A DNA stretch of 24,000 bases, from positions 1 to 24,000 of the forward strand of contig JMMB01000001.1 of the NCBI GenBank assembly GCA_000686145.1. The letters run 5' to 3'. This document shows positions 1-20,921 of the stretch, piece by piece (position 1 is the first letter of the stretch; the number at the start of each line of letters is the position of its first letter). Origin of the DNA: Peptostreptococcaceae bacterium VA2. Lineage in GTDB: Bacteria; Bacillota; Clostridia; Peptostreptococcales; Peptostreptococcaceae. Position numbers and translations under genes: made by a program. The notes under the pieces were generated by a model that was not told where the DNA came from, made no database searches, and saw only the letters and a program-made list of their open reading frames with translations.

Positions 1-1133
1 TCTATGATTTTTTATATTATCATTTATAAACTGTTTAAAAATAAAATTAATAAAAGTTCATTAAATTATTTTGAATCTCAAAATAATTATAGTGCAATAA
101 TAAATGAGCCATTTAAATTCTCCAAAACAATTAAAATAAATAGTCTTGAGAATATTTTTACACTTCGTTTAAATAATGGTTTTAATTCTTTTTTAAAATC
201 TCTATTGCATTATGGTAAAGTAACATATTTATATAACAGCTTAGAACAACTAATAGAAACTATATTTACTTCAGCTTTATTATTTATATGTGCTTTACAA
301 GTTTTAAATAAAAATATGTCAATAGGCCAAGTTACAATAATTCTTAACTATTTTGCCTTAATATTAAGTAGTTTTAGCCTATATTCTAAACTTCGGAAAA
401 AGGTATCAAGAATATAAAGTTTGCTGTGATAGATTTGAGGAATTGTTAAGTATAGATCAAGAATCTCAAGGAACTGAAATAATAGATAAAATAAATAAAA
501 AAATAACTTTGCAAAATTTTACCTATTTAGAGGGAGATAGTGTAGTAATCAATAACTTAAATTATTCATTTGAATCCGGAAATATTTTACACAATTTTTG
601 GAGCAAACGGATGTGGAAAATCTACATTGCTTTATTTTAATATCTAGAATTATTAATAATGATTCTGGGAATCTGTATTTTAATAATACAAATTCCGATT
701 TAATAGACTTTAATCATCTCAGAAAACATCATATATCTTTCTTAGAACAAGAACCAAATTTAATAAAAGATACTTTCTATAACAATATTACTTATAATAT
801 TGAAAATACTACTTCACTTGAGCAATATATAGATTTATTTAACTTAGATATTTGCTTTAATAAATTTGAAAATGGAATTAACTCTATGCTTTCTGATAAT
901 ATAGAAAAATTTATCTGGCGGAGAAAAACAAAAAAATAGGTTTAGTCAAAACATTTTTGAAAAATTCTAACTTAGTAATTCTTGATGAGCCCACATCAGC
1001 ACTTGATTCTAATAGTTGTGTGAAATTTTGAAAAAGTTATTAGCTTAATATACAAGAAAGACAAAATTTATTATAGTAGTAACTCCATGATAAAAATTTA
1101 CTTGATATAAGTGATTTTATACTTAGAGTTTAA
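1..1133 (+). pseudogene. ABC-type peptide/bacteriocin exporter (fused permease-ATPase), 5'-partial and multiply frameshifted
   Basis: ORF 4-417 is the hydrophobic tail of a transmembrane domain. Reading on across frames gives RYQEYKVCCDRFEELL, Walker A GANGCGKST (~600-626), signature LSGGEKQK (911-934), Walker B LVILDEPTSALD (~970-1008) and a C-terminus HDKNLLDISDFILRV* ending at 1133. At least 5 frame changes or stops are needed to join these pieces. Confidence 0.8.
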
Positions 1134-1183
1134 AATAATAAAATATTACTCTTGGTTAATAACTAAAAGGATGTTCTAATTTT

Positions 1184-1294
1184 ATGGAAATAATAAAGAA
1201 ATCTGAAGGTATATCTCCATATATAATTGAATGTGGCCCTAACGGGCTAGATCGTGATGGGCAATGTTCTTTAATCATCACAATGTACTTGTAA
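1184..1294 (+). CDS. Degenerate paralog of the Cys-rich RiPP precursor (conserved leader, divergent core with few Cys)
   Basis: MEIIKKSEGISPYIIECGPNG matches the first 21 aa of the 23660-23827 peptide with one substitution (I/V). The 5' UTR is also homologous but has a 4-nt insertion and a weaker RBS. After GPNG the core diverges (LDRDGQCSLIITMYL*), and Cys-containing fragments (QCTCKN) appear out of frame. Confidence 0.5.
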   Translation: MEIIKKSEGISPYIIECGPNGLDRDGQCSLIITMYL

Positions 1295-1351
1295 AAACTG
1301 ATGATAATTTGCCGTATGCTTGTACAGTTCCCAAAATTGTAATAATCTAAA

Positions 1352-1405
1352 AAAAATAAAAATAGAGAATTAAGTTATAAAACTTAATTCTCTATTTTTA
1401 TTTTT
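1352..1405. terminator. Bidirectional rho-independent terminator between convergent genes
   Basis: Perfect 25-bp stem (aaaaataaaaatagagaattaagtt / aacttaattctctatttttattttt) with loop ataa. A/T runs flank both sides. Confidence 0.8.
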
Positions 1406-1425
1406 TTAACAATCTATTTTCAGCT

Positions 1426-2180
1426 TTAATTATTTCTATTTACTTTATTCCATAGATATTTTGATACTATCGCCTCTACCTCTAAAGTAATCTCATTTCT
1501 TTTCTTTTTTGCCATGATACTCAAATACTCCAATATAAGTTTTTGTTCTTTAATATATAATCTACCTTCTGCTTTGAAAATCCATACTTAGTCCCTATTT
1601 TAGCTAATGAAATACCTTTAGACCTTAATTTAAATATATCCTTTACTATTTGTGCTTCTTTTTCATCAACTTCAAATTCACCATTTTTATTTACTTTATA
1701 TCCTAGTGATGGCTTACCACCAACCCATTTATTTTCATTAAGCCTTGCTATTCTACCATTGCGAGTTCGCTCATTTATAATAGCTCTTTCAAATTCTGCA
1801 AAACTTCCAAGCATCTGTAAAAATAACATCCCCTGTGGATTTGAGGTGTCAAATAACTCGGTAACACTTACCAAAGCTACTTCATACTCTTGTAATTCAT
1901 AGATCATAGCTAATAAATTGTATAAACTTCTGTGTATTCGGTCGTTCTTATAAACTACAATCATCTCTATATCATTTTCTTTAACATAATTTATCATTTT
2001 ATCATATTCTGGTCTATCTGTTGATTTACCTGAAACTGCTTTATCTATAAACATTTTATCTATCGCTATATCATGAAGCTTGCAATACATTTTTATTTTA
2101 TCTTCTTGGTCCTTTAATGAAGTATTATCTACTTGCATTAAAGTCGAGATCCTACAATATCCTACTGCTCTTTTTTTCAT
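1426..2180 (-). pseudogene. Serine recombinase (resolvase N-domain plus partial 'recombinase' domain), C-terminal part frameshifted
   Basis: N-terminus MKKRAVGYCRISTLMQ carries the catalytic-Ser motif typical of resolvase/invertase enzymes. The ATG at 2180 follows GGAGGA. Comparison with the paralog at 21368-21911 shows a 1-nt insertion after ILKNKN and a second frameshift after HGKKEKK. The restored reading (..YIGVFEYH..NEITLEVEAIVSKYLWNKVNRNN*) ends at 1426. Confidence 0.8.
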
Positions 2181-2411
2181 GTCATCCTCCAAATGTATTT
2201 TATATAATATCCTTATGTATTCCTAAGGATACCGAGATACGTGTAAAAACCGGCCACATCTTCTGTATATATGTTGGTATTACTAGATTTCACGCTTGAT
2301 TTTTTTAAAAATTATACCTTTTATCTAACCTGCGTTTTTTACGAAAAAAAGCACCAAAGTTGCTTCAATCTCTGTAAAATCAATAGCTTAGCCATTTTTT
2401 TTAATATATCG

Positions 2412-2452
2412 CTATAGTAGCCTCAGGAAAATGCGAATTTACAACGTTAAGG
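2412..2452. repeat. Third copy of the terminal-repeat motif of the 21912-22175 element
   Basis: ctatag..aaaatgcgaatttacaacgttaagg aligns with ctataa..aaaatgcggatttttaacggtaaag at 21912-21955. Nearby, 2374-2389 (gtaaaatcaatagctt) matches the reverse complement of 22073-22086. Confidence 0.45.
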
Positions 2453-2554
2453 CGATTTTGCCCGCTTATTCCAATGGATTGGTGAGTTTCTAAGAATATC
2501 TATATGGGTCCAGGACGAAATACAAGACTACACACCTGTCGGTACAAATATTAA

Positions 2555-2583
2555 AAAGTACCGCTATACTAAAACGGTACTTT
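2555..2583 (-). terminator. Rho-independent terminator of 2591-2812
   Basis: 9-bp stem aaagtaccg/cggtacttt. On the minus strand it is followed by a T-run (the complement of 2550-2554). Confidence 0.7.
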
Positions 2584-2590
2584 AAATTTT

Positions 2591-2812
2591 CTATATTTTT
2601 TTATATCTTTGAGTTCCTCCATTATCAGGAAGTGCCTCTACCGATAATACATTTAAATCTACAACTTTCTTGAAGCTTTTCCCTAAACTATACGTTTTAT
2701 TTAAACTTTGTAAATTTGACCATTCTTTACTTGTAAATAACTCTTCTAATATAAATTGCTGATTACCTGCTAACGTTTCTAATCTTCCAATTGCTCTACT
2801 TAATAAATCCAT
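2591..2812 (-). CDS. Small hypothetical protein (possibly DUF1413-like)
   Basis: 73-aa ORF with RBS AGAGGTG 6 nt upstream of the ATG. The pattern ..EELFTSKEWSNL...LGKSFKK.V resembles small DUF1413-type proteins, but this is recalled from memory. Confidence 0.55.
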   Translation of the reverse strand: MDLLSRAIGRLETLAGNQQFILEELFTSKEWSNLQSLNKTYSLGKSFKKVVDLNVLSVEALPDNGGTQRYKKI

Positions 2813-2876
2813 CTATTACACCTCTTTATATAAATTTAATATTAAATATTTTCAAATACTTTAAGTTTATTTTAAT

Positions 2877-3509
2877 TTATTCAACTTCATCAAAGAATAT
2901 AGTTTTTATAAACTCTCCAATTCTTGCTGATTCTGATTTTTTTAAATCTTTAGGTATTTCTATTTTTACATTTACATCTGGTCTTATTGGATATTCTACT
3001 GTTATAAACTCTTTTTCATCTAATTTATCTTCTAAAATTTCTCCAAGTGCTATTTGGATATCTTTATATCTATGAGTTAATTCAACACATGCTCTTGGTG
3101 ATTTTAATGAACTTCTTAAATCTAATGTCAAATCATTTCTTAAAACTGGATCACAAATCCATTTAACACCTCTTTGATGAGGATATCCTGTCCCTGTAGC
3201 TTTAGTTTTATCATATATATATTCTGTAACTATTTCTCCTATATAAACAATCTCTTCATCAGGTACAACTACATAATCTCCTATGCTCATTCTATTTACA
3301 ATAATATCTAATGTTGCTTTATCGCTAGACATTGATCTAGAACTTTTATATTCATATGTATTATTAAGTATTTCTCCAATATCCTTTATATCTTTTCCTG
3401 ATAAATCGTCTACATCATCCCATCCAGCACCTATTAAGTTATCTAATTTAAATTCTTTCATTTTATTTATGTTATTTGGTAATGGCCTAAACATCCATGC
3501 TCTTTTCAT
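2877..3509 (-). CDS. Hypothetical protein resembling the N-terminal module found on Mrr-type restriction proteins
   Basis: 210-aa ORF with RBS AAAGGGG. The pattern W.FR......F......IG.GW....DLSG ... GD.VVVP....IY.GEI...Y.......YPHQR.VKWI matches the non-catalytic N-domain I recall from Mrr-like restriction system proteins. No nuclease motif is present. Confidence 0.6.
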   Translation of the reverse strand: MKRAWMFRPLPNNINKMKEFKLDNLIGAGWDDVDDLSGKDIKDIGEILNNTYEYKSSRSMSSDKATLDIIVNRMSIGDYVVVPDEEIVYIGEIVTEYIYDKTKATGTGYPHQRGVKWICDPVLRNDLTLDLRSSLKSPRACVELTHRYKDIQIALGEILEDKLDEKEFITVEYPIRPDVNVKIEIPKDLKKSESARIGEFIKTIFFDEVE

Positions 3510-3573
3510 ATTTATACCCCTTTCAGTATTATCTTTTATCTAAATAATATCAACATTTATAAAGTAAGTCAAC

Positions 3574-3612
3574 AGAAAATTATAGATAACTTGTAGTTAT
3601 CTATAATTTTCT
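3574..3612. promoter_or_regulatory. Perfect 18-bp inverted repeat with a 3-nt centre, upstream of 2877-3509
   Basis: agaaaattatagataact-tgt-agttatctataattttct, verified as a perfect palindrome apart from the centre. It sits 65-100 nt upstream of the ATG at 3509. It could be an operator or a hairpin terminator. Confidence 0.4.
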
Positions 3613-3707
3613 ATTATTTTATTAATCATATTTTGATTGTTCTTATGATATAAATCCAATGAAAAGGTCAAGTTTGTCGGCTCAAACTTGACTAAATCGA
3701 ATCAAAA

Positions 3708-3738
3708 ATATATTGTAACTTTAGTAGTTACAATATAT
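3708..3738 (-). terminator. Rho-independent terminator of 3838-4809
   Basis: 13-bp stem atatattgtaact/agttacaatatat with loop ttagt, followed on the minus strand by TTTTTG. A second hairpin lies at 3667-3692 (gtcaagtttg/caaacttgac). Confidence 0.7.
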
Positions 3739-3837
3739 TCAAATCATTTTACCATACTTATTTTTCATATTAATTATTATATATATTAATTATATTATCA
3801 AACTTTGTCGAATTTAAATATATATTTAATATCATTA

Positions 3838-4809
3838 TTAAGATTTACTCTTCGAAGAATTTAATACTTCATTATGAATATCATTTATAATATCTAATCT
3901 TAATTTATTGAATTTACTCCTATATCCATATTTATCTTCTTTTACTTGACATGTTTTATCACTAATACGAAGTACATCTAATTCTGATATTTGATAAACT
4001 ACTTCAATTGACAAATCTCTAAAATGAATAAAATCAAGTATATTACTACATTCATTTCCTGTACTTAATACTCTTAACCATTTAATTATCCATTCTCTAT
4101 CAGAACCTTTTATATAATATACATGATTATACCAATTTTCATCGTACACTAGTCCACTATAATTTCCTCGTATATAAATATAACACCTCTCTTTAAATTT
4201 TTCTAAAGATCTCTTATCCTCATAATCTCCATTTACTTTGCATTTTAATAAGTTAAGATTTGTGTTAAATATTAACTTAAAACTCTCTAGAATATCTTCT
4301 GGTTTGTTCAAATATCTATTCGGTTTTATCATAAATGTTTTAGTATAATCATCAACAATTTTTTCTATAACGCTATCCGTTTCTTTAATACAACTATTTA
4401 ATAAATAATATAACATTTGTAGTGCATACTCTCTATCATCTTTTTTCTTACCTTTAGCTTCCATTCTAATTAATTGATATGCACCCATAAAGCTTATAAT
4501 TGGTGCTATCGTAGTTGCCAATGCTAATAATATTTCAGCATCTCTTATTCTTACATTATCCCAACCTAAAGCACCTATTCCAATCATATATGATATCATA
4601 ATTGATATCCCCACTAATATTATCCATTTATTGACTTTATTTTTTTTTTCTTGTTTATTATTAAATAATATTAATCCAGCACCTATTGCAATTCCTACTA
4701 TTATACAAAATATACTTAGTCCAATAATATTTTCACCAGTAAATATATTATAAAAAAATCTATACAATTTATCACTTAATACAAAAAATCCTTCTCGCAT
4801 TTTGTCCAC
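3838..4809 (-). CDS. Membrane-anchored hypothetical protein (N-terminal TM helices plus cytoplasmic domain)
   Basis: 323-aa ORF. The GTG start at 4809 lies 7 nt after GGGAGAG. Residues ~25-115 contain 3-4 hydrophobic helices, and the rest is soluble with no motif I recognise. Confidence 0.65.
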   Translation of the reverse strand: MDKMREGFFVLSDKLYRFFYNIFTGENIIGLSIFCIIVGIAIGAGLILFNNKQEKKNKVNKWIILVGISIMISYMIGIGALGWDNVRIRDAEILLALATTIAPIISFMGAYQLIRMEAKGKKKDDREYALQMLYYLLNSCIKETDSVIEKIVDDYTKTFMIKPNRYLNKPEDILESFKLIFNTNLNLLKCKVNGDYEDKRSLEKFKERCYIYIRGNYSGLVYDENWYNHVYYIKGSDREWIIKWLRVLSTGNECSNILDFIHFRDLSIEVVYQISELDVLRISDKTCQVKEDKYGYRSKFNKLRLDIINDIHNEVLNSSKSKS

Positions 4810-6570: not shown

Positions 6571-7206
6571 TTATTTTATATTCTCATAAAAATCAATATA
6601 TTGATTTAGTATATAGTTAAGTAACTCTTGCTGAGTTACTCCACTATCTTTTAGATCTTCTGCTATTCTTTCAAATCCTTTTTGAACTTCTACATCTAAT
6701 TTTAATGTTTTAGCTCTATAGTCTCTTTTTCCTTGTTTAAAATTATATATTTCTTTTACTATATCTTGTTTCGTCTCCATATTACTTTCAGTAATATCTT
6801 TGTAATATTCATTTTGACCATCTAATAAATTCTTAATTCTTTCTACGTTATCCATTAGATATGTTAGACTATTTTTTTGATTAGAAGTTATCTCTAAGTT
6901 AGTTGTAATATTATTTATTACTGGAATATTACTTTCATTCCTCGGGGTACTTTTCATATTACTTTCTGTAATATTACTGTAATATTTCTTTTGTTCCCCC
7001 GCTTGTACATCAACATTTTCAAGCATGTACTGCTTTTTACTCTGGCTATATTTGTATCCAGCCTTACCAAAATTTTTACTAATAGTCTTTCTCGATATTT
7101 CTACATCCTCAGAGAATTTAGTTAATGTGGTTCCTTCTTTTAGGATATTATTTACGTACTCTATCTGAGATAATATATCTAAATTTTTAAAGTCTTCTTT
7201 GTTCAT
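6571..7206 (-). CDS. HTH DNA-binding protein with an internal tandem repeat and an RHH-like C-terminus
   Basis: The ATG at 7206 is preferred because GGAGGTG lies 7 nt upstream; the track start at 7221 is TTG. The N-terminal HTH is LTKFSEDVEISRKTISKNF. The repeat YY(S/K)(N/D)ITESNM occurs twice. The C-terminus is KTLKLDVEVQKGFERIAEDLK. Confidence 0.7.
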   Translation of the reverse strand: MNKEDFKNLDILSQIEYVNNILKEGTTLTKFSEDVEISRKTISKNFGKAGYKYSQSKKQYMLENVDVQAGEQKKYYSNITESNMKSTPRNESNIPVINNITTNLEITSNQKNSLTYLMDNVERIKNLLDGQNEYYKDITESNMETKQDIVKEIYNFKQGKRDYRAKTLKLDVEVQKGFERIAEDLKDSGVTQQELLNYILNQYIDFYENIK

Positions 7207-7223
7207 TTGTTCCACCTCCAATC

Positions 7224-7253
7224 AATATTACTTCTTGTAATATTATATATTAC
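7224..7253. promoter_or_regulatory. Overlapping ATATTAC/GTAATAT palindromes directly upstream of 6571-7206 (candidate operator)
   Basis: aatattac-ttctt-gtaatatt, then gtaatat-tat-atattac. The same heptamers recur 9 more times at 6779-6985 and 5 times at 8131-8182. Confidence 0.55.
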
Positions 7254-7398
7254 TTTTTAAAGTCTTTCTGTATGTTTTTGAAAATTAATATAACTTACAA
7301 ATAATATTTTAAATAAAACAATCTTGTATACTCCATTTAACACAGTATACAATTAGATAAGGAAATAAATTTTTCATATTAATATAAGGAGATATTCT

Positions 7399-7866
7399 AT
7401 GTTAAAAACACCTTTAGGAAATTTAATTGTTCAAAAGAATAATATAGAGATAGATTATAGTGCGATACCACAACCTTTAAGAATTTTTGATAAACTAAAT
7501 TACTATGTTGATGCAAGATATCTAATAGATATTGATACCAAAACTATTAAATCAGGTGATACAATCAAATACTTTATTGATTGCAAGAATGTTGAGACAG
7601 ATATTGATGGTGGAGAATACTTAGCACTTTTAAACTTGAGAAATAATAATCTATTGATGAGTTTAGGTGTCTATGAAATACTCTATCGTAGCCATAAAAA
7701 AGATTTTGGCTTTGATGTATGTTATATTGATAATGGCTTAGAATCATATTTTATTGATAATAAATACACTGAAAAATTTAGATTGGCGATATCATGGATA
7801 GAGTTAAAAGATGATCTGGATGAAATATCAACTTGGTATGCTTCAGATCCAACGTTATTTAATTAA
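7399..7866 (+). CDS. Hypothetical protein
   Basis: 155-aa ORF with RBS AAGGAGA 7 nt upstream and a terminator immediately downstream. I recognise no motif. Confidence 0.65.
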   Translation: MLKTPLGNLIVQKNNIEIDYSAIPQPLRIFDKLNYYVDARYLIDIDTKTIKSGDTIKYFIDCKNVETDIDGGEYLALLNLRNNNLLMSLGVYEILYRSHKKDFGFDVCYIDNGLESYFIDNKYTEKFRLAISWIELKDDLDEISTWYASDPTLFN

Positions 7867-7878
7867 ATAGATAGGAGA

Positions 7879-7919
7879 AGAGTTGAAGTAGGAGCAAAAA
7901 ACACCCCTACATCAACTCT
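7879..7919 (+). terminator. Rho-independent terminator of 7399-7866 (also the terminal stem-loop of repeat copy A)
   Basis: agagttgaagtagg / cctacatcaactct stem followed by tttttatt. Confidence 0.75.
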
Positions 7920-8130
7920 TTTTATTATATGTTGGGGTCAAACTTAAGGGTCGAGTCTGACTTCACAGATTGTAGCTGAGAAGCGCTACAAACTGTGAGG
8001 CCAGCCTCAAAACGTACTGCATGAGTTAATTCTTACTTTTCTAAATTAAATAATATTTTTCATGAAAAAAGCACTTGTAATTTTATATACTTTACAAGTG
8101 CTTTTCTATGCTTTTAATAGTATTTCTTCT

Positions 8131-8182
8131 ATATTACAAATCATATTACTACTAGTAATATCAAATATTACTTTTATATTAC
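8131..8182. repeat. Phased array of five ATATTAC/GTAATAT heptamers (iteron-like)
   Basis: The heptamers start at 8131, 8143, 8155 (inverted), 8165 and 8176, a spacing of 10-12 bp. The array lies in a non-conserved spacer of copy A. Confidence 0.6.
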
Positions 8183-8918
8183 CAACTCTGTATATCTTGA
8201 CATAGCTATACTTCAAGTTACTATTTATAGAGTTTGGCTGTCGCCACCGCGCTTTCTCTGCAATCTTTTGAGCAAAGAACACTCAAAAGGATTTTCGTTC
8301 AATCGCTAACTCAAAACCCACCCTTCTATAGTAATTTTCATATATTTTGAAAGTAAATTACTTTCTAGTTAATTTAACTGTTTATCGAAAAGATTGGCCT
8401 TCGACCCTGCCCCTCTGACTAATCTCAAAAGCACGAACACAATTCGCTCCTAAAATACTTCGCAAACATCATATTTCATATCAAGTCTGCTTTGTATATT
8501 ATCCGCTCATTTGTGTTCGTAGCTTATTTAAGATAGCCATTCACTGCCCTAAGCCCAATGCCCTGTATATTTGTTTTTGTTGGTGCATAACTCCAAATAA
8601 AGTCTATTGAGCCTTCACATTTTTAATAATAAATTTTTATTGCTACTTTAAAGGTTTATCTCTCCTATTAACTACATAAGTATAGTTAGTTAGTGCCGGC
8701 AATATAGTTTAATTGTTGGTACTACGCATTGGATAAAACCATTGCTCCGCTATCCAACGCTAGTCTATATTAGCTTTTAATAATGTATTTATCATTTATG
8801 TACATTTTAGCAACAATTATTGTTTCGTTATTTATATATGTTTAATAATTTTCTTGTCATAACTTAACAGTATTGATGCTTTTTGAGTGTTCAAAAAAAC
8901 ATCTATTTTGGTGGACCC

Positions 8919-8945
8919 TTGTCAAATAGCAACTTATGGTATAAT
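8919..8945 (+). promoter_or_regulatory. Sigma-A-like promoter for the NUDIX gene
   Basis: TTGTCA (8919-8924), 15 nt, then TGgTATAAT (8937-8945). The spacer is slightly short. Confidence 0.45.
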
Positions 8946-8992
8946 TAGACTTACAAGTTAAGTATGAAAATTAAAGAGGGGAAAGATTTGAT

Positions 8993-9442
8993 ATGATTAA
9001 TGTTGATTTTTTTAAATGGGATGAAATAAATGATAAGGATTTATTATTTGCTGTAATAGTATCAAGATTTCAACACAAATGGATTTTAGCAAAGCATAAA
9101 GATAGAGAAACTTGGGAAATTCCAGGTGGTCATAGAGAAAAAGGGGAAAAAATAAATATTACAGCATCAAGAGAACTTCAAGAAGAAACAGGAGCAAAAG
9201 AATTTAAACTTACACCCATTTGTATTTATTCAGTAACAAAAGAAGATGGTGATAAAACAAAACACCCAGTATCAACATTCGGAGGTTTATATTTTGCAGA
9301 AGTAACAGAACTTGGAGATTTACCAAATCTTGAAATCGAAGAAATTAGATTTTTTAACAACTTGCCAAATGAGTTAACTTATCCAGAAATTCAGCCTTGT
9401 TTACTTGATAAAGTAATTAAATATATTAATAATCAGCATTAA
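8993..9442 (+). CDS. NUDIX hydrolase
   Basis: Complete Nudix box GHREKGEKINITASRELQEETGA (GX5EX7REUXEEXGU). RBS AGAGGGG upstream and a terminator downstream. Confidence 0.9.
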   Translation: MINVDFFKWDEINDKDLLFAVIVSRFQHKWILAKHKDRETWEIPGGHREKGEKINITASRELQEETGAKEFKLTPICIYSVTKEDGDKTKHPVSTFGGLYFAEVTELGDLPNLEIEEIRFFNNLPNELTYPEIQPCLLDKVIKYINNQH

Positions 9443-9485
9443 AAAATATATTATCACCACTTGATAATACATGGTATATATGAGT

Positions 9486-9509
9486 TAGGAGCAAATGCTC
9501 CTATTTTTT
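9486..9509 (+). terminator. Rho-independent terminator of the NUDIX gene
   Basis: taggagc-aaat-gctccta followed by tttttt. Confidence 0.75.
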
Positions 9510-9729
9510 AAACATATATTATTGTTAACAGATTTAATCTTAAACTAAAATTTAATATATCAAACTAATACAATAAAAAGTTGTACATGAAAATAAATAT
9601 ATGTTTTCGTGTACAACTTTTTAGGTGTCATAACTTTATAATTACGATACCTTGTTTTCATATATTAGTTATAAGGTCTGCAACAATATCAAAACTCAGA
9701 ATCAAAAAACTAGTCATAAGACTAGCTTT

Positions 9730-10394
9730 TCATATTATATAAGCATCTGCAAAACCTTTATTTTTAGCCATTTGAACTTGATTTACAGCGTTGTTTTTAT
9801 CTCTGATATGCACCAATACAAACCTTATACAAGATGTCGTTATTAACTTTTTCTAACCCAAATAACTCTATTAAATTATCTCTAATTATAGAAACTACTG
9901 CTTTAATACTTGCACTAACTTTTAAATCTTTTTCAGCTTCTATTATTTGATATAAAATCAACTTCAATTAAGCTAGCTGGCATAGTTGTGTTTTTCAAAA
10001 CTGAAAGCGCCTTACTATATTTAACTCCCCTATTTCTAGAATTAAAAATCTTTGAAATATCCTCACAAACTCTCTTAGAAAAATTATTCATCTTAGTATT
10101 ACCATTGCTGTACTGCCATATTTCAACTCCTCTAACACTCTTATCCGAAGCTGAATTGATATGAATAGACAAAAAATAATCTGCCTTAAAATCATTTGCT
10201 ATCCTAGCTCTCTCACTCAATGATAAATACTTATTTTCTAGTCTTGTAAATTTAACTTCTATCTCACAATTTTTCAATAACTCATTTAACTCTTTTCCTA
10301 TAGCTAAAACCACATCTGCTTCATGTGTTTTATTTTGTCCAACCGCTCCTGAGTCATTTCCTCCATGCCCTAAATCAATAACTAATCTTTTCAT
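9730..10394 (-). pseudogene. N-acetylmuramoyl-L-alanine amidase (Amidase_3) with a C-terminal SPOR-like domain, frameshifted
   Basis: ORF 9933-10394 has GHGGNDSGAVG, SIHINS and LIEVDFISN. Downstream, in other frames, are IIEAEKDLKVSASIKAVVSIIRDNLIELFGLEKVNNDILYKVCIGAYQR and then KNNAVNQVQMAKNKGFADAYII* (SPOR-like). At least two frameshifts separate these pieces. Confidence 0.75.
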
Positions 10395-10520
10395 AAAATC
10401 CCCTTTCCACTTATTAATATTTTTTTATTAACAAATTCACTGTATTGCCTAACCACTTCATTTCCCCCACACATTACTCAAATCTATGTATAATTTAATT
10501 ATAGAATTTGGAGGGATTTT

Positions 10521-10625
10521 ATGGATAGAAAAGATATAAACGCACAATTTTTAAAAAATAAAATAGGAAAAAATAATTTTAAAATACTGCTAGATTACTT
10601 ATTACATTTAAGCACACGAAAATAG
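10521..10625 (+). CDS. Possible 34-aa small protein
   Basis: GGAGGG lies 5 nt upstream of the ATG. The sequence is MDRKDINAQFLKNKIGKNNFKILLDYLLHLSTRK* and is followed by hairpin 10623-10651. There is no other support. Confidence 0.3.
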   Translation: MDRKDINAQFLKNKIGKNNFKILLDYLLHLSTRK

Positions 10626-10656
10626 CCTGTATATTAGCTTGTACAGGCTTTATTAT

Positions 10657-11058
10657 TTATTTATTATAGTTTGTATTGAAAGCAAAGCTTTTAAGCTCTA
10701 AACCTTTAATCTCACCACTTGACCAACTATCATTTACTTTATCTTCTTTTTCATTCATACTAGTAGTTTTTTTACTGGATCTTGTGCTCTTGCTCTTAAT
10801 TTTTTGAGTATTAATCTTTTTCTCATGAGCCTTTTCTTTCTTTGCTTGTTTTTGTTTATATTCTTCAAACTTTAAAACCCCAAAATTTTTAATCATAGCT
10901 TGCTCTGTAATAATCCAAGTTGTCCCTATTTTTTTAATATCCTCATCAATAACAAACTTACCACGAGCCACCTTTTTTCTTAAACAAGAAGCATCTATGC
11001 CATATATTTCTTCTATATCTAAAAACGTATACAACCCTTTAAAATTCCCAATTGCCAT
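10657..11058 (-). CDS. HTH DNA-binding protein with a lysine-rich tail
   Basis: 133-aa ORF. The N-terminus LDIEEIYGIDASCLRKKVARGKF....IKKIGTTWIITEQAM is an excisionase/MerR-like small HTH. The C-terminal half is K/S-rich. Confidence 0.65.
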   Translation of the reverse strand: MAIGNFKGLYTFLDIEEIYGIDASCLRKKVARGKFVIDEDIKKIGTTWIITEQAMIKNFGVLKFEEYKQKQAKKEKAHEKKINTQKIKSKSTRSSKKTTSMNEKEDKVNDSWSSGEIKGLELKSFAFNTNYNK

Positions 11059-11123
11059 AACATTTCCCCCTTAAAACTTCTATGCTTTATATATTCTACA
11101 TAACAAAATAAATCCATTTTTAT

Positions 11124-11230
11124 TTTCACGCAAACGTGACAAATTAAGGCTTGATCATAAAAAATAATGTCACGTTTACGGGACATTACTTTTATATTTA
11201 TTAGTTTTTAAATGTCCTGTTTGCGTGACA
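11124..11230. promoter_or_regulatory. Three copies of an 18-bp palindromic operator TGTCAC-N6-GTGACA upstream of 10657-11058
   Basis: 11124-11141 (reverse complement TGTCACGTTTGCGTGAAA), 11168-11185 (TGTCACGTTTACGGGACA) and 11213-11230 (TGTCCTGTTTGCGTGACA). Centres are ~44-45 bp apart. Confidence 0.65.
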
Positions 11231-11269
11231 TTTAGATATTTTAAATAAATCTAATTCTTTTTATAAAAT

Positions 11270-12100
11270 ACTTTCTTAAAAGCTAGATAGACCAGCATTT
11301 GATAACGGAGCAATGGTTTTATCCAATGCGAAATACCAAGTTAGAAACTTTATACCGACACCAAATAACTCTACTCATTTAGTAAATTAAAAATATAAAC
11401 TTAAAAATATTTACACGATAAATTATCAAAAACGTGGAGGTCCATAAACTATTAATGGAAAAAAATCTAAAAACTAAACACACAGGGCATTGGGCGAAGG
11501 GGCAGTGAATGGCTATGCTCAAAAGCTACGAACACATGCGAGCGGATAATATACGAAGCAGACTTGATATGAAATATGATGTTTGCGAAGTATTTTAGTA
11601 GTGAGTAGTGTGAGTGCGTTGAGTATTAGTCAGAGGGGCATGGCCGAAGGCCAATCTTTCTGATAACCAATAAAACTAATTAGAAACCAACTTACTTAAA
11701 ACCTAAATAAAACTTTAGATTTAAAAATGGTTTTGAGTTAGCGATTGAACGAAAATCCTTTTTAGCGCACTTTGCTAAAAAGATTGAAGAGAAAGCGCGG
11801 TGGCGAAGCCAAACTCCCAAAGTATCAATATTAGGTATAGCAACTATAATATCCATATAATCAACGAATTAAATTATATAAAAAAATTATTATTAAAGTC
11901 TCAAGTACCTCAAATCCAAAAGCTAAATCTAATCAAAAAACTTATAAATAACCAATGCACCAGGTCTTTAGTCTGGCATCACAGTTTATAGCGGTTCTTA
12001 GCTATTATCTGTGAGGTCAGACTCGACCCCAAAGCTTTTGACCCCAGCATATAAATAGAGATAGTTGAGGTAGGAGCGCTCTTTGCTCCTTCGTCAACTA
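11270..12100 (+). ncRNA. Copy B of the large non-coding paralog pair (candidate structured RNA; strand inferred)
   Basis: Mirror of 7879-8786. A -10-like TATAAAAT lies at 11262-11269. The terminal stem-loop at 12061-12101 is followed by cacccttttt. The only ORF (11800-11991) falls in a spacer that copy A does not conserve. Confidence 0.45.
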
Positions 12101-12253
12101 TCACCCTTTTTAAATAATCTTTAAATGTGTTTTTAGAGAATAGTATTTCTTAGCGATGCCCACGAAAATATCTGTTTTAGTGGACATATTAATATTTTAA
12201 ATATGATATAATTTAAATATTATATTCGATTAATTTGATAATAGGGGGAGCAT

Positions 12254-12871
12254 ATGATTGATAATACTATTTATTTAATAGGTCAATTAATAAATACAAT
12301 AGCTCAAATTGTATTATTTAGCAGTATTCCATTTTTATGGTATATTATTTCAAAAAGAAGTTTTAAGGGAGTATTTAAATATTTAGGGTTAAAAAATACT
12401 AATAAACAAAATTATTTTCAAGCTTTAAAAATAACTAGTTTAGCATATATTTTTTCATTCTCTATTATAGTTATCCTTAAGTTAATTCAAGGAGGAATGT
12501 CTTTAAATCCTTTAGACGGTTCATATGATAGAGGACTTATTATTTTTACTATATCTTTAGTTCTATTTGGCATAAAGGCTGGTCTTAGTGAAGAGATACT
12601 TTTTAGAGGATTTTTAGGAAAAAGGTTAATATGTAAGTTTGGATTTTTAAAAGGAAATTTATTGCAAACTGGAATTTTTATACTTCCTCATGTATTTACA
12701 TTTGGAAAATCGCCTACTTTAGAAGTGATTTTTGGGCTTATAAACGCCGCTATTATAGGATATGTATTTGGATATATTATGGATAAGAAATCAAATGGAA
12801 GTATTTTGCCAATTATAATTTGTCATGGAGTTGTAAACATTACTTCATCAATTATAATAAATATTATATAA
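12254..12871 (+). CDS. CPBP family intramembrane glutamic endopeptidase (CAAX protease / Abi-type)
   Basis: Multi-TM protein with motif 1 SEEILFRGF, motif 2 FILPHV and motif 3 ICHGVVN. RBS GGGGGAG. Confidence 0.85.
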   Translation: MIDNTIYLIGQLINTIAQIVLFSSIPFLWYIISKRSFKGVFKYLGLKNTNKQNYFQALKITSLAYIFSFSIIVILKLIQGGMSLNPLDGSYDRGLIIFTISLVLFGIKAGLSEEILFRGFLGKRLICKFGFLKGNLLQTGIFILPHVFTFGKSPTLEVIFGLINAAIIGYVFGYIMDKKSNGSILPIIICHGVVNITSSIIINII

Positions 12872-12920
12872 AAATAATCATATGTTAACCTATGATTATA
12901 AAAAATAGTACTTATTTAGT

Positions 12921-12948
12921 GTTCAAAAAAACATATGTTTTTCTGAAC
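12921..12948. terminator. Bidirectional terminator between convergent genes
   Basis: gttcaaaaaaacat/atgtttttctgaac, a near-perfect palindrome. Confidence 0.6.
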
Positions 12949-19661: not shown

Positions 19662-20921
19662 CTAAGAGGACGTTTCATTAAACTTTTTTTCTTTAATTTC
19701 TTTTATAATTTGAGATACTCTTCCCTTTGTTAATCCCAATTCTTTAACTATTTGTACTTGTTTATATCCTTTTTCATATAGCTCTTTTACTGCATTAATA
19801 TTATCTAATCTATCTTGTTCCCTTTTAGTTAATCCATTTTCATTTCTTCTTTTAGCTTTTTTCTTTTCTTTTTGTTCCTCTGCACTTCTTCTATATTTTT
19901 CTTTGCCAGATATAATCGTTATTAGATGTTCCTGCTCTTGTAAAGATATATCTAATATCTCAATTAATTTTGTATTAGTATATTTGTATAATTTATTTTC
20001 ATAGGCTCTTGTAGCCGACTTAGTATCTCTGATAACTTCATTCTCTGGTAATGGCTTTTTAAACATATCATTTAACTCTAGTGCTCTTCTTAAAGCTTCC
20101 TCTGCATCTTCTGTAAAGCAGGCTGAGTAATACCTATATAAAAACAATATAACTTCTCTATGCCCTTCTACATCATAATTTCTAAGTTCACAAACCTTAG
20201 TTATATCAATTACTCTTGCATGATAAAGACTATATTCAGTAAAAAGGCTCACCATTTTTTTAGGTCTACCCTTTGACTTCTTCTTTTTATTTATCTCCGG
20301 TAAATATTCCTCTTGTATTTCTTTTAATGAATACTCATAATCATATGCATCCAAAATCTCAACACAAGTTCCACTCTTTGAATTCATAGTACCAACTATC
20401 CTTAAAACTCTAGTTGGATCAAGTGCATTTGCATCTGCTCCAAATTGTTTTAAAGAATTAAATAAATATCTTTGTACCGCATACCATAAAGGTAGCGCCA
20501 TACTTGGAACTGGTTTTATTAAAATAACATAATAAAGTCCACGCCCACTATCTATTAAATAATTAGGTCTTGGTATTTTAGATCCATATAAGTCATGTTC
20601 TAAAAAATATTGAACTGCATCTTTAGTATATTTTGAGTTGTAGCAATCTATATCAATATAAACAGCTCTAAGCTCCTTTATATTCTCAATTCTTCTTTGT
20701 GGTCTATAAAATGTATTTTGAGATACATAAGTATTTATATTACTTATAATTTCATCACTTCTTTGTAGTAAATCATCTTTTTTATAGTGCCATTGGCTAT
20801 AGTCAGGATTTTTCTTAGCAATAGTTATATATCCTTCGCTGTCTTTATGTAAATTTGTTAAATGTTTCCTTGATTCATCTATGTTAACTTCATCATTTTC
20901 CTTTAATTTAAATGCTTGCAT
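19662..20921 (-). CDS. Plasmid/element replication protein, primase-polymerase (AEP)-like N-domain with a C-terminal HTH
   Basis: The sequence has ELRAVYIDIDC (DxD), SGRGLYYV and TRVLRIVGTMNSKSG, which resemble AEP/prim-pol Rep motifs. A basic linker is followed by the HTH GYKQVQIVKELGLTKGRVSQIIKEIK. RBS AGGGGGAG. Confidence 0.55.
   Translation of the reverse strand: MQAFKLKENDEVNIDESRKHLTNLHKDSEGYITIAKKNPDYSQWHYKKDDLLQRSDEIISNINTYVSQNTFYRPQRRIENIKELRAVYIDIDCYNSKYTKDAVQYFLEHDLYGSKIPRPNYLIDSGRGLYYVILIKPVPSMALPLWYAVQRYLFNSLKQFGADANALDPTRVLRIVGTMNSKSGTCVEILDAYDYEYSLKEIQEEYLPEINKKKKSKGRPKKMVSLFTEYSLYHARVIDITKVCELRNYDVEGHREVILFLYRYYSACFTEDAEEALRRALELNDMFKKPLPENEVIRDTKSATRAYENKLYKYTNTKLIEILDISLQEQEHLITIISGKEKYRRSAEEQKEKKKAKRRNENGLTKREQDRLDNINAVKELYEKGYKQVQIVKELGLTKGRVSQIIKEIKEKKFNETSS

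Follow-up and report, generated by a model that had tools for sequence, protein, structure and literature searches.

Two inverted copies of a non-coding element

The DNA analysed here (the window) is a stretch of 24,000 nucleotides (nt) from Peptostreptococcaceae bacterium VA2 (contig JMMB01000001.1, positions 1 to 24,000) and belongs to a family of small Paraclostridium plasmids. Two inverted copies of a large element, A and B, lie within it on either side of a central cassette that holds an Amidase_3 gene and a small helix-turn-helix (HTH) gene, c6 (Table 1). Judging from the sequence comparisons set out below, we conclude that each arm is probably a gene for a large, highly structured non-coding RNA (ncRNA), a reading to which we assign a probability of about 0.8. 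Rfam has no model for this family, and we found no description of it.

An earlier note on this DNA, made from its letters alone, had described a pair of inverted, non-coding paralogs of ~0.85-0.9 kb with patchy conservation, and this description holds. A repeat search found five colinear inverted segments between 7862-8768 and 11287-12118, with complementarity of 72-92%; BLAST aligned A with B at 78.7% identity over 563 nt (E 1e-121) and over a further 163 nt at 78.5%, and the two inverted copies are 76% identical overall. The contrast that had been drawn between GC-enriched islands and AT-rich spacers is likewise borne out, with a GC fraction of 0.39-0.47 in the former and 0.19-0.26 in the latter. 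Comparison of open reading frames (ORFs) found none common to the copies, again as described, and the variable columns show no 3-nt periodicity, being evenly spread over the codon phases in each island (chi-square p = 1.0, 0.85, 0.25 and 0.08); the median stop-free stretch of the core is 62 codons.

Table 1. Coordinates of the two copies, their parts and the features next to them (limits of the copies by nhmmer profile match).
Feature	Copy	Position	Strand	Remarks
Full extent, a-type paralog	A	7858-8792	-	profile positions 5-900, 697 bits
Full extent, b-type paralog	B	11264-12121	+	profile positions 5-899, 685 bits
Core, islands 1-4	A	8191-8792	-	profile positions about 7-600
Core, islands 1-4	B	11264-11855	+	profile positions about 7-600
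5' hairpin, 11 bp, invariant loop GCGGAGCAAYGGUUU	A	8726-8760	-	helix 1; found by blind scan
5' hairpin	B	11295-11329	+	covariation, blind scan
Long irregular arm, ~40 bp in stacked segments, tandem G·A-type internal loop	A	8416-8539	-	helices 3-7, 18 pairs with two-sided changes
Long irregular arm	B	11510-11632	+	covariation, single-sequence fold
Flavo-1-like domain with closing helix and GGC-GNNA-GCC hairpin	A	8230-8312	-	helices 9-13; RF01705
Flavo-1-like domain	B	11735-11816	+	covariation; RF01705
Rfam match, Flavo-1 (RF01705)	A	8241-8315	-	46.5 bits
Rfam match, Flavo-1 (RF01705)	B	11732-11806	+	47.7 bits
Hypervariable AT-rich spacer	A	8012-8190	-	unalignable between copies
Hypervariable spacer	B	11856-11965	+	no internal terminator
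Island-5 hairpin, 3' module	A	7951-8010	-	helices 14-15, 11 pairs with two-sided changes; z -4.2
Island-5 hairpin	B	11967-12026	+	covariation; z -6.2
3' terminator-like hairpin	A	7878-7920	-	helix 16; z -6.2; weak sense-strand U tract
3' terminator-like hairpin	B	12060-12102	+	helix 16; z -5.3
Inverted segment pair	A/B	8314-8525/11523-11734		212 nt, 80%
Inverted segment pair	A/B	8241-8318/11729-11806		92%
Inverted segment pair	A/B	7940-8059/11918-12037
Inverted segment pair	A/B	8702-8768/11287-11353
Inverted segment pair	A/B	7862-7926/12054-12118
Operator-like palindromes between c6 and copy B		11107-11232	.	inverted repeats; similar ones precede other copies
c6, small excisionase-like HTH gene diverging from the 5' end of copy B		10657-11058	-	phrog_2655 4.9e-12; PF20038 HTH_59 1.2e-4, below the Pfam cut-off
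Amidase_3 gene, central cassette		9933-10394	-	PF01520 9e-44; 153 aa vs 218-228 aa in relatives
c1, conserved ~200-aa protein downstream of a-type copies		6571-7221	-	14 genome/plasmid loci; phrog_2727 5.8e-18

The family, its hosts and the age of the duplication

The nhmmer profile defines a family of 139 copies (85 non-redundant at 97%), spread over 5 Paraclostridium plasmids, 35 genome loci, 81 metagenome loci and 1 IMG/VR contig. The five plasmids are complete P. bifermentans plasmids of 19-32 kb, all typed as non-mobilizable in PLSDB, with nothing annotated beneath the element; HD0315_2 and DSM 14991 are examples of P. bifermentans strains with such a plasmid. Genome and metagenome loci were found with a 21-base pattern from the most conserved island. 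The former, from GTDB species genomes, belong mostly to Romboutsia, Terrisporobacter, Paraclostridium and other Peptostreptococcaceae, and many lie on small contigs of very high coverage. A few sit in metagenome-assembled genome (MAG) bins of other phyla and are probably mis-binned; the same probably holds for a 'Flavobacterium' MAG contig (locus L183 of our collection), since it carries DUF1659 and DUF2922 genes of the Bacillota type. Many of the metagenome loci are from the human gut. A phage origin was rejected, since blastn against 50,697 phage records returned no match to the element and since, among ~170 IMG/VR loci that matched two 15-17-base patterns, 1 was real (L069). The hosts are Peptostreptococcaceae and gut Bacilli. 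The family is found in a conserved accessory module, carried in Peptostreptococcaceae by small theta-type plasmids and in the gut by a ~22-kb element that is attributed to Faecalibacillus.

Copy B is 91% identical to the plus-strand copy of L192 and to the copies of L211 and L209, while the nearest relative of copy A is the minus-strand copy of L192, at 84%. Since core identity is 64-82% within one element and 84-100% between a copy and a copy in another element, the a and b copies are old paralogs that have been kept separately and not a substrate for recombination, which argues against homogenising recombination and for selection on both. These values bear on whether the arms could instead be inverted repeats acting as DNA, namely the ends of a composite transposon, a segment inverted by a serine recombinase, or decayed copies of a gene or insertion sequence (IS). 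Although inverted arms surround a variable cassette in 12 elements, and serine recombinase genes occur on the same plasmids, the identities reveal no homogenisation, conservation is by base pairing and not by sequence, and single-copy arrangements are common. Searches by blastn against phage records and against Rfam and Pfam found no phage or IS match; the arms contain no transposase remnant and, as noted above, share no ORF and show no codon periodicity. We give this explanation almost no credence.

A fold kept by compensatory change on one strand

The earlier note had taken the repeat for a candidate large structured RNA and proposed that homologs be collected and examined for covariation. 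We aligned full copies without reference to structure in two independent ways, with hmmalign (28 copies) and with MAFFT (27 copies). RNAalifold gave the hmmalign alignment an energy of -238 kcal/mol on the sense strand, compared to -196 on the antisense strand and -38.5±4.6 after column shuffling; in the MAFFT alignment it predicted 83 pairs, 34 of them with compensatory changes. A structure of 112 pairs was made from the RNAalifold pairs by leaving out a competing four-pair long-range helix and adding the helix that closes island 4 and the 5' and terminator hairpins. It had 96.5% of its cells paired, compared to 36-40% when partners were slid by 1-3 columns. Two-sided changes were seen at 46 pairs, compared to 12-17 in the slid and 23.6±2.5 in the shuffled controls (0 of 500 shuffles reached 46), and the covariation score was 0.212, compared to ~0.03 and ~0.09, respectively. 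The homologs therefore covary well above both controls.

An all-against-all scan of single column pairs passed 611 pairs, only 33 of which lie in the fold, and was set aside as uninformative. A blind scan for helices (at least 4 stacked pairs, each ≥90% canonical, with at least 2 covarying) returned ten, and all ten fall within the predicted fold: three each in the long arm and in the island-5 hairpin, two in the terminal hairpin, and one each in the 5' hairpin and the apical stem of island 4. Single-sequence folds of the window cores had z values of -3.4 and -3.7 relative to shuffles, and the minimum-energy fold of copy A reproduced its long arm. Some G·U pairs are invariant (for example 26/26), the small hairpins carry GNRA- or GNNA-type loops, one internal loop of the long arm has tandem G·A-type mismatches, and seven copies have an optional hairpin after GGGCA. 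A long-range pairing of island 3 with island 5 (GGG/CCC) suggested by RNAalifold was rejected, as it found no support in the blind helix scan and some copies have no island 5. An alternative pairing of GGAG in the 5' hairpin loop with CUCC after island 4 involves invariant bases only.

Three compensatory differences between A and B had been cited, and all of them fall in helices that covary across the family: in the apical stem of the Flavo-1-like hairpin (G-C 16 / U-A 11), in the island-5 hairpin (G-C 20 / A-U 7; U-A 15 / C-G 8 / A-U 4) and in the 5' hairpin, respectively. The proposed strands, minus for A and plus for B, so that both are read outward, are confirmed by the excess of G·T over A·C cells (286 vs 53) and by the fold energies given above. 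Taken together, these results demonstrate that the fold is kept by compensatory change on one strand only, and the interpretation as a large structured RNA gains from covariation above both controls and from a blind scan that returned no helix outside the predicted fold.

Covariation alone does not distinguish RNA from single-stranded DNA (ssDNA), and we considered whether the element folds as ssDNA, as a promoter of the Frpo/ssi kind, a priming site or a single-strand origin, with inverted pairs guaranteeing one functional orientation. The neighbouring ardA is a typical leading-region gene (PMC11541004), and genes lie downstream of most copies. However, the regulatory regions searched for Frpo measure 50-350 bp, lie directly upstream of the gene they drive and belong to conjugative leading regions (PMC11541004), whereas the present element measures 640-1250 nt and has ardA upstream of it, not downstream. 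The complete plasmids and the near-complete ~22-kb gut contig contain no relaxase, type IV secretion system or rolling-circle Rep. Invariant G·U pairs, GNRA-type loops and the tandem G·A-type loop are typical of RNA, a terminator-like hairpin stands at the end, and in gut elements a single copy suffices. By reading, no stem that rebuilds -35/-10 hexamers is evident among the supported helices, although no dedicated search was run. We consider an ssDNA function very unlikely. The Rep proteins are of the phrog_9432 type (window 19662-20921, 8e-32) or Rep_3, and their genes are not adjacent to the RNA; a role of the RNA as replication primer or origin, which we also considered, is weakened by this.

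A conserved core and a separable 3' module

The core spans islands 1-4 (~640 nt) and comprises the 5' hairpin, conserved G-rich single-stranded joiners, the ~40-bp irregular arm, a small hairpin with a GNRA-type loop and the Flavo-1-type domain. Beyond it come a hypervariable spacer and, in most copies, a 60-nt hairpin (island 5) and a terminator-like hairpin, the latter being the conserved stem-loop that had been noticed at the end of each copy. The architecture is a series of long irregular hairpin arms. The 3' hairpin of copy A could also serve as terminator of the converging ORF 7399-7866. A stronger terminator-like hairpin lies in the spacer of that copy, a perfect 19-bp hairpin followed by U6 (~8064-8110, minus strand, -19.6 kcal/mol, z -5.5). 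The spacer of copy B has no equivalent, and the two paralogs may for this reason give transcripts of different length. The spacer hairpin of copy A also yields a sub-threshold RefA9 match.

Several observations weigh against reading each copy as the gene for one large RNA. Single-pair covariation is inflated by clade structure, which is why we turned to the blind scan at the level of helices, and several highly conserved segments are invariant and hence uninformative on structure. At the 5' end an A/T-rich -10-like box is positionally conserved with no consistent -35, and a promoter scan at the copies found no more than chance; of the earlier proposal that each copy starts just after a conserved -10-like box, the position of the box stands and a recognisable promoter does not. 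The 3' hairpins are strong (z -5 to -6) and their sense-strand U tracts weak. In addition, no helix with covariation support in the blind scan connects island 5 to the core, some genuine copies lack island 5 (L198/L218/L261/L277/L282, L205 and the plus-strand copy of L194), and the spacer tolerates a whole antisense gene or IS element, such that the apparent ~850-nt RNA may be a ~640-730-nt RNA plus a separate 3' element. Finally, the function proposed below is argued from synteny, namely the layout of ardA and repressor, and from the analogy of other large RNAs that mobile elements carry.

The points concerning island 5 raise the alternative of two units, a core RNA made of islands 1-4 and a 3' element that would be a small RNA of its own, or a terminator or processing module for neighbouring genes. 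The spacer hairpin with U6 of copy A, standing ahead of island 5, fits this alternative, as do gut copies whose spacers hold IS605-like insertions or an antisense gene with its own -10-like boxes and terminator. However, most complete copies, across genera, have island 5 behind the core and oriented as the core is, and copy B is free of internal terminators. A 25-nt module, moreover, occurs in the same lineages on both the Flavo-1-type and the island-5 hairpin, suggesting that the two have evolved together as parts of one molecule. Two independent units are possible, although we consider them the less likely case. Since genuine copies lack island 5 and no supported helix ties it to the core, islands 1-4 are the essential RNA, and the ~850-nt unit that the earlier note had treated as single is a ~640-nt core with a separable 3' module.

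In 46 copies the 25-nt module (GAGCCACGUGUGGGCGAACCACUUU) is grafted on the apical loop of the hairpin in island 4, and in 40 on that of the island-5 hairpin; it would be a candidate module for tertiary contact or protein binding. L196, L187, L200 and ~46 gut copies belong to the lineages in which both hairpins carry it. A gut variant of 1247 nt accounts for 27 of the 44 full metagenome copies. Its extra ~390 nt do not form an RNA domain, as we had considered, and instead constitute an antisense cassette in the spacer encoding a hydrophobic ORF of 52 aa (MSKNNAKKNNNYYFPLFMGMGLVFGVILDQIAIGLCLGVAIGLALDNNKKKK) with its own ribosome-binding site (RBS), -10 boxes and terminator. This ORF is also called by an independent gene caller, has a strong RBS and gives a weak Gly-zipper match; its cassette is found at about 1440-1833 of L207, at 6868-7071 of L294 and in 27 gut metagenome loci. 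Should the large RNA read through it, the layout would resemble the sense/antisense arrangement of a type I toxin.

Mobile elements are inserted in L231, L256, L186 and L212 (profile position about 303-309) and, within the spacer, in L244, L283 and L223. One kind of insertion in the RNA gene is IS21-like, with ORFs of 437 aa and 252 aa and ~7 nt of the RNA duplicated at the junction; the other is IS605-like, with ORFs of 441 aa and 137 aa, and lies in the loop of the small ORF's terminator. Downstream of the b-type copies of L002 (about 7180-7300), L003 and L205, a conserved purine-rich block (AAAGGGAAAGGTGGTGGGGGAGCAGAGAGCGCGGTGGGAGAAG...) stands before DUF1659 in place of the terminal hairpin; the window has no such block.

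Genomic context and proposed function

The ORFs of all loci were clustered and then annotated against protein-family libraries. In Peptostreptococcaceae the module reads c1< RNA-a< Amidase_3< c6(HTH)< [ArdA> c10>] RNA-b>, where < and > give the direction of each gene, and continues after RNA-b with either c1> c9> serine recombinase> or DUF1659> DUF2922> YvrJ>. The copies face outward in 12/12 two-copy elements. The gut element has one copy, in the order c1< (247-aa ORF)< Amidase_3< c6< RNA> c24(HTH_7)< DUF1659> DUF2922> YvrJ> Mor<, and the paired arrangement seen by the earlier note is therefore not obligatory. The RNA starts divergently from the small HTH gene or follows ardA, and c6 is its most constant protein neighbour. 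Upstream operons have terminators of their own, ~50 nt ahead of the element, so the RNA forms a discrete unit; and because its 3' end often converges on a gene of the opposite strand, we take it to be a stand-alone gene and not a leader.

We nevertheless weighed the possibility that it is a giant cis-acting leader, an attenuator or a riboswitch-like device, for the c1-c9 or DUF1659-DUF2922-YvrJ genes downstream. In Peptostreptococcaceae plasmids the copies are co-directional with c1 or DUF1659 and lie 90-440 nt upstream of them, and the terminal hairpin, which b-type copies in L002 and L003 lack, might act as a regulated terminator. In contrast, the RNA converges on the opposite-strand c24 in >25 gut loci, and in the window ORF 7399-7866 lies convergent to copy A and the gene after copy B encodes an unrelated CAAX protease. 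Moreover, the downstream genes differ between a-type and b-type copies, and a hypervariable spacer that admits IS or gene insertions is hard to square with a switch that is read through. A leader function is highly improbable.

The region between c6 and copy B contains three palindromes of the TGTCACG...CGTGACA type, likely a binding site through which c6 would control the divergent promoters; similar TCACG/CGTGA palindromes lie upstream of copies in L184, L192, L209, L207, L182 and L196. Sense transcripts of ~0.65-0.9 kb are predicted to start near CUUnUUAAAAGC, at about 11276 (plus strand) in copy B and about 8780 (minus strand) in copy A. One unit of a 38-nt direct repeat (82% identical, core TGTTCAAAAAAACAT) lies in the NUDIX promoter region (8879-8916) and the other after the CAAX-protease gene (12911-12948); the repeat may be a shared regulatory site.

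As for the remaining genes of the module, a second, overlapping ORF (9797-9967) continues downstream of the Amidase_3 gene (minus strand, together 9797-10394), and the amidase gene of the window is probably truncated, frameshifted or decaying. c1 offered no functional clue, as none of its 374 homologs carries a Pfam domain or a name. It is 86-88% identical between the window plasmid and the ~22-kb element (P0104 / L294), whose c1 homolog occurs in 158 assembly-index blocks and is attributed by NCBI to Faecalibacillus intestinalis (class Bacilli), which implies that the module moved recently between bacterial classes. Positions 1-4232 of the gut element L294 further encode an Agr-like quorum-sensing set, in which AgrB, with a 47-aa ORF behind it, is accompanied by a kinase (HATPase_c_5) and a LytTR response regulator, and, adjoining the RNA module, a toxin-antitoxin pair (Gp49/HTH_3).

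Under our preferred reading of a large ncRNA gene, the RNA would be a stand-alone, trans-acting molecule whose promoter diverges from c6 and is probably repressed by the c6 protein. In many elements the RNA would belong to the same rightward unit as the antirestriction gene ardA, and the link of the RNA to an HTH regulator and to ardA suggests a role in plasmid establishment. Our best functional guess, offered tentatively and by analogy, is that the RNA is a protein-binding or self-associating scaffold which is made early and aids establishment or maintenance of the plasmid. Candidate protein partners would be c10, c1 and DUF1659/DUF2922; SroA and SroB, the S. aureus homologs of the last two, influence how stable mRNAs are (bioRxiv 10.1101/2022.10.19.512975). 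More speculative, and in our estimation unlikely, is a new class of giant ornate RNA that would form a higher-order RNA or ribonucleoprotein particle like ROOL or GOLLD, be made at host entry alongside ArdA and promote establishment; such an RNA would rank among the longest structured ncRNAs outside ribosomal RNA, group II introns and GOLLD. If that were true, the 25-nt loop modules and the G-rich joiners would be intermolecular contacts, plasmids with two paralogs would form a hetero-assembly, and Flavo-1 would be a reusable structural module common to several phyla.

Comparison with known RNAs and DNA elements

Large bacterial RNAs with complex folds are rare, and new classes have tended to reveal unexpected biochemistry or architecture (PMC5737381, PMC12286853). 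The present family provides a ready alignment (139 copies, two bacterial classes) that covaries clearly and includes variants of naturally different length and a minimal core of ~640 nt, in a tractable genetic setting of small plasmids from culturable Paraclostridium and Romboutsia and the ~22-kb element attributed to Faecalibacillus intestinalis. A search of the literature, in which subscription journals were not covered, found no description of this RNA.

The earlier note had likened the copies to GOLLD, ROOL and OLE without assigning a family, and no Rfam family could be assigned to the whole element. Specifically, ROOL, GOLLD, OLE, HEARO and raiA gave no match at E<=10 over 7700-12300, and none of them reached its gathering score anywhere in the window or in six further loci; a permissive Rfam scan of 7700-12300 added only noise beyond Flavo-1. 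Thus the absence of a model for the whole RNA stands as stated, while one island proved to be a bona fide match to Flavo-1, discussed last.

ROOL is likewise a structured bacterial ncRNA of more than 500 nt that is carried by mobile DNA of Bacillota and recognised solely through comparative genomics (PMC5737381; PMC12286853), and the elaborations of the apical loops seen here would be compatible with intermolecular contacts. ROOL, however, is multi-junction and pseudoknotted, whereas the supported fold of the present RNA consists of long hairpin arms set one after another, and the blind scan supports neither a pseudoknot nor any long-range helix; the context is a plasmid, with 0 tRNAs in the window, and not a prophage. 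GOLLD, which is associated with phages or mobile elements, and OLE share the size class and the 'ornate' pattern of conserved islands with optional hairpins, but they differ in host range and found no Rfam match here, and the window offers neither prophage nor tRNA context. Frpo/ssi promoters resemble the element in being strand-specific folded elements adjoining ardA on a plasmid (PMC11541004), in contrast to which the element is several times longer, lies downstream of ardA on replicons without transfer genes and has features of the RNA type.

The raiA motif RNA measures ~200 nt. It too is a structured ncRNA of spore-forming Bacillota (PMC10861870, PMC11706538), and the module described here carries genes of a sporulation flavour, namely a CwlD-like amidase and DUF1659/DUF2922/YvrJ; on the other hand, raiA is described as chromosomal and widespread (PMC10861870, PMC11706538).

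Flavo-1 (RF01705) is the only Rfam 15 family matched in the whole window at its gathering score of 42 (Table 1). Eight further copies matched it at 49.1-56.7 bits, always on the sense strand and with no other Rfam family, such that the gathering score was passed in 10/10 copies tested, over ~75 nt of each. The Flavo-1 architecture corresponds to helices 10-12 of our fold, all of which covary (pairs 550-634, CG17/AU6/GC3; 573-612, GC16/UA11; 603-609, CG10/UG6/UA5), and its apical stem is among those recovered by the blind scan. Since the gathering score is passed and the architecture coincides with covarying helices, island 4 is a Flavo-1 domain by Rfam's own criterion. Island 4 and Flavo-1 alike have a 3-bp outer stem, a long apical stem rich in A/U and two internal loops in which both strands bear sequence of the GAUUG-AG type. 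Flavo-1 has been described as a stand-alone motif of ~76 nt, with 239 representatives found almost only in Flavobacteria and other Bacteroidetes, plus Spirochaetes (PMC2864571), and in F. psychrophilum it lies sense, antisense or outside of transcripts without preference (PMC9723704). The hosts found here, Peptostreptococcaceae and gut Bacilli, fall outside that taxonomic range. Unlike the short form with many copies per genome, it is here one domain of a conserved RNA of 640-850 nt on Bacillota plasmids, present in 1-2 copies per replicon and followed by an invariant extension (GGUGGCGAnAGCCAAACUCC) that is missing from the Rfam consensus. The family is best regarded as a candidate new RNA class, large and structured, with a Flavo-1 domain among its parts; this gives the 15-year-old orphan motif its first structural context as a domain of a larger RNA.

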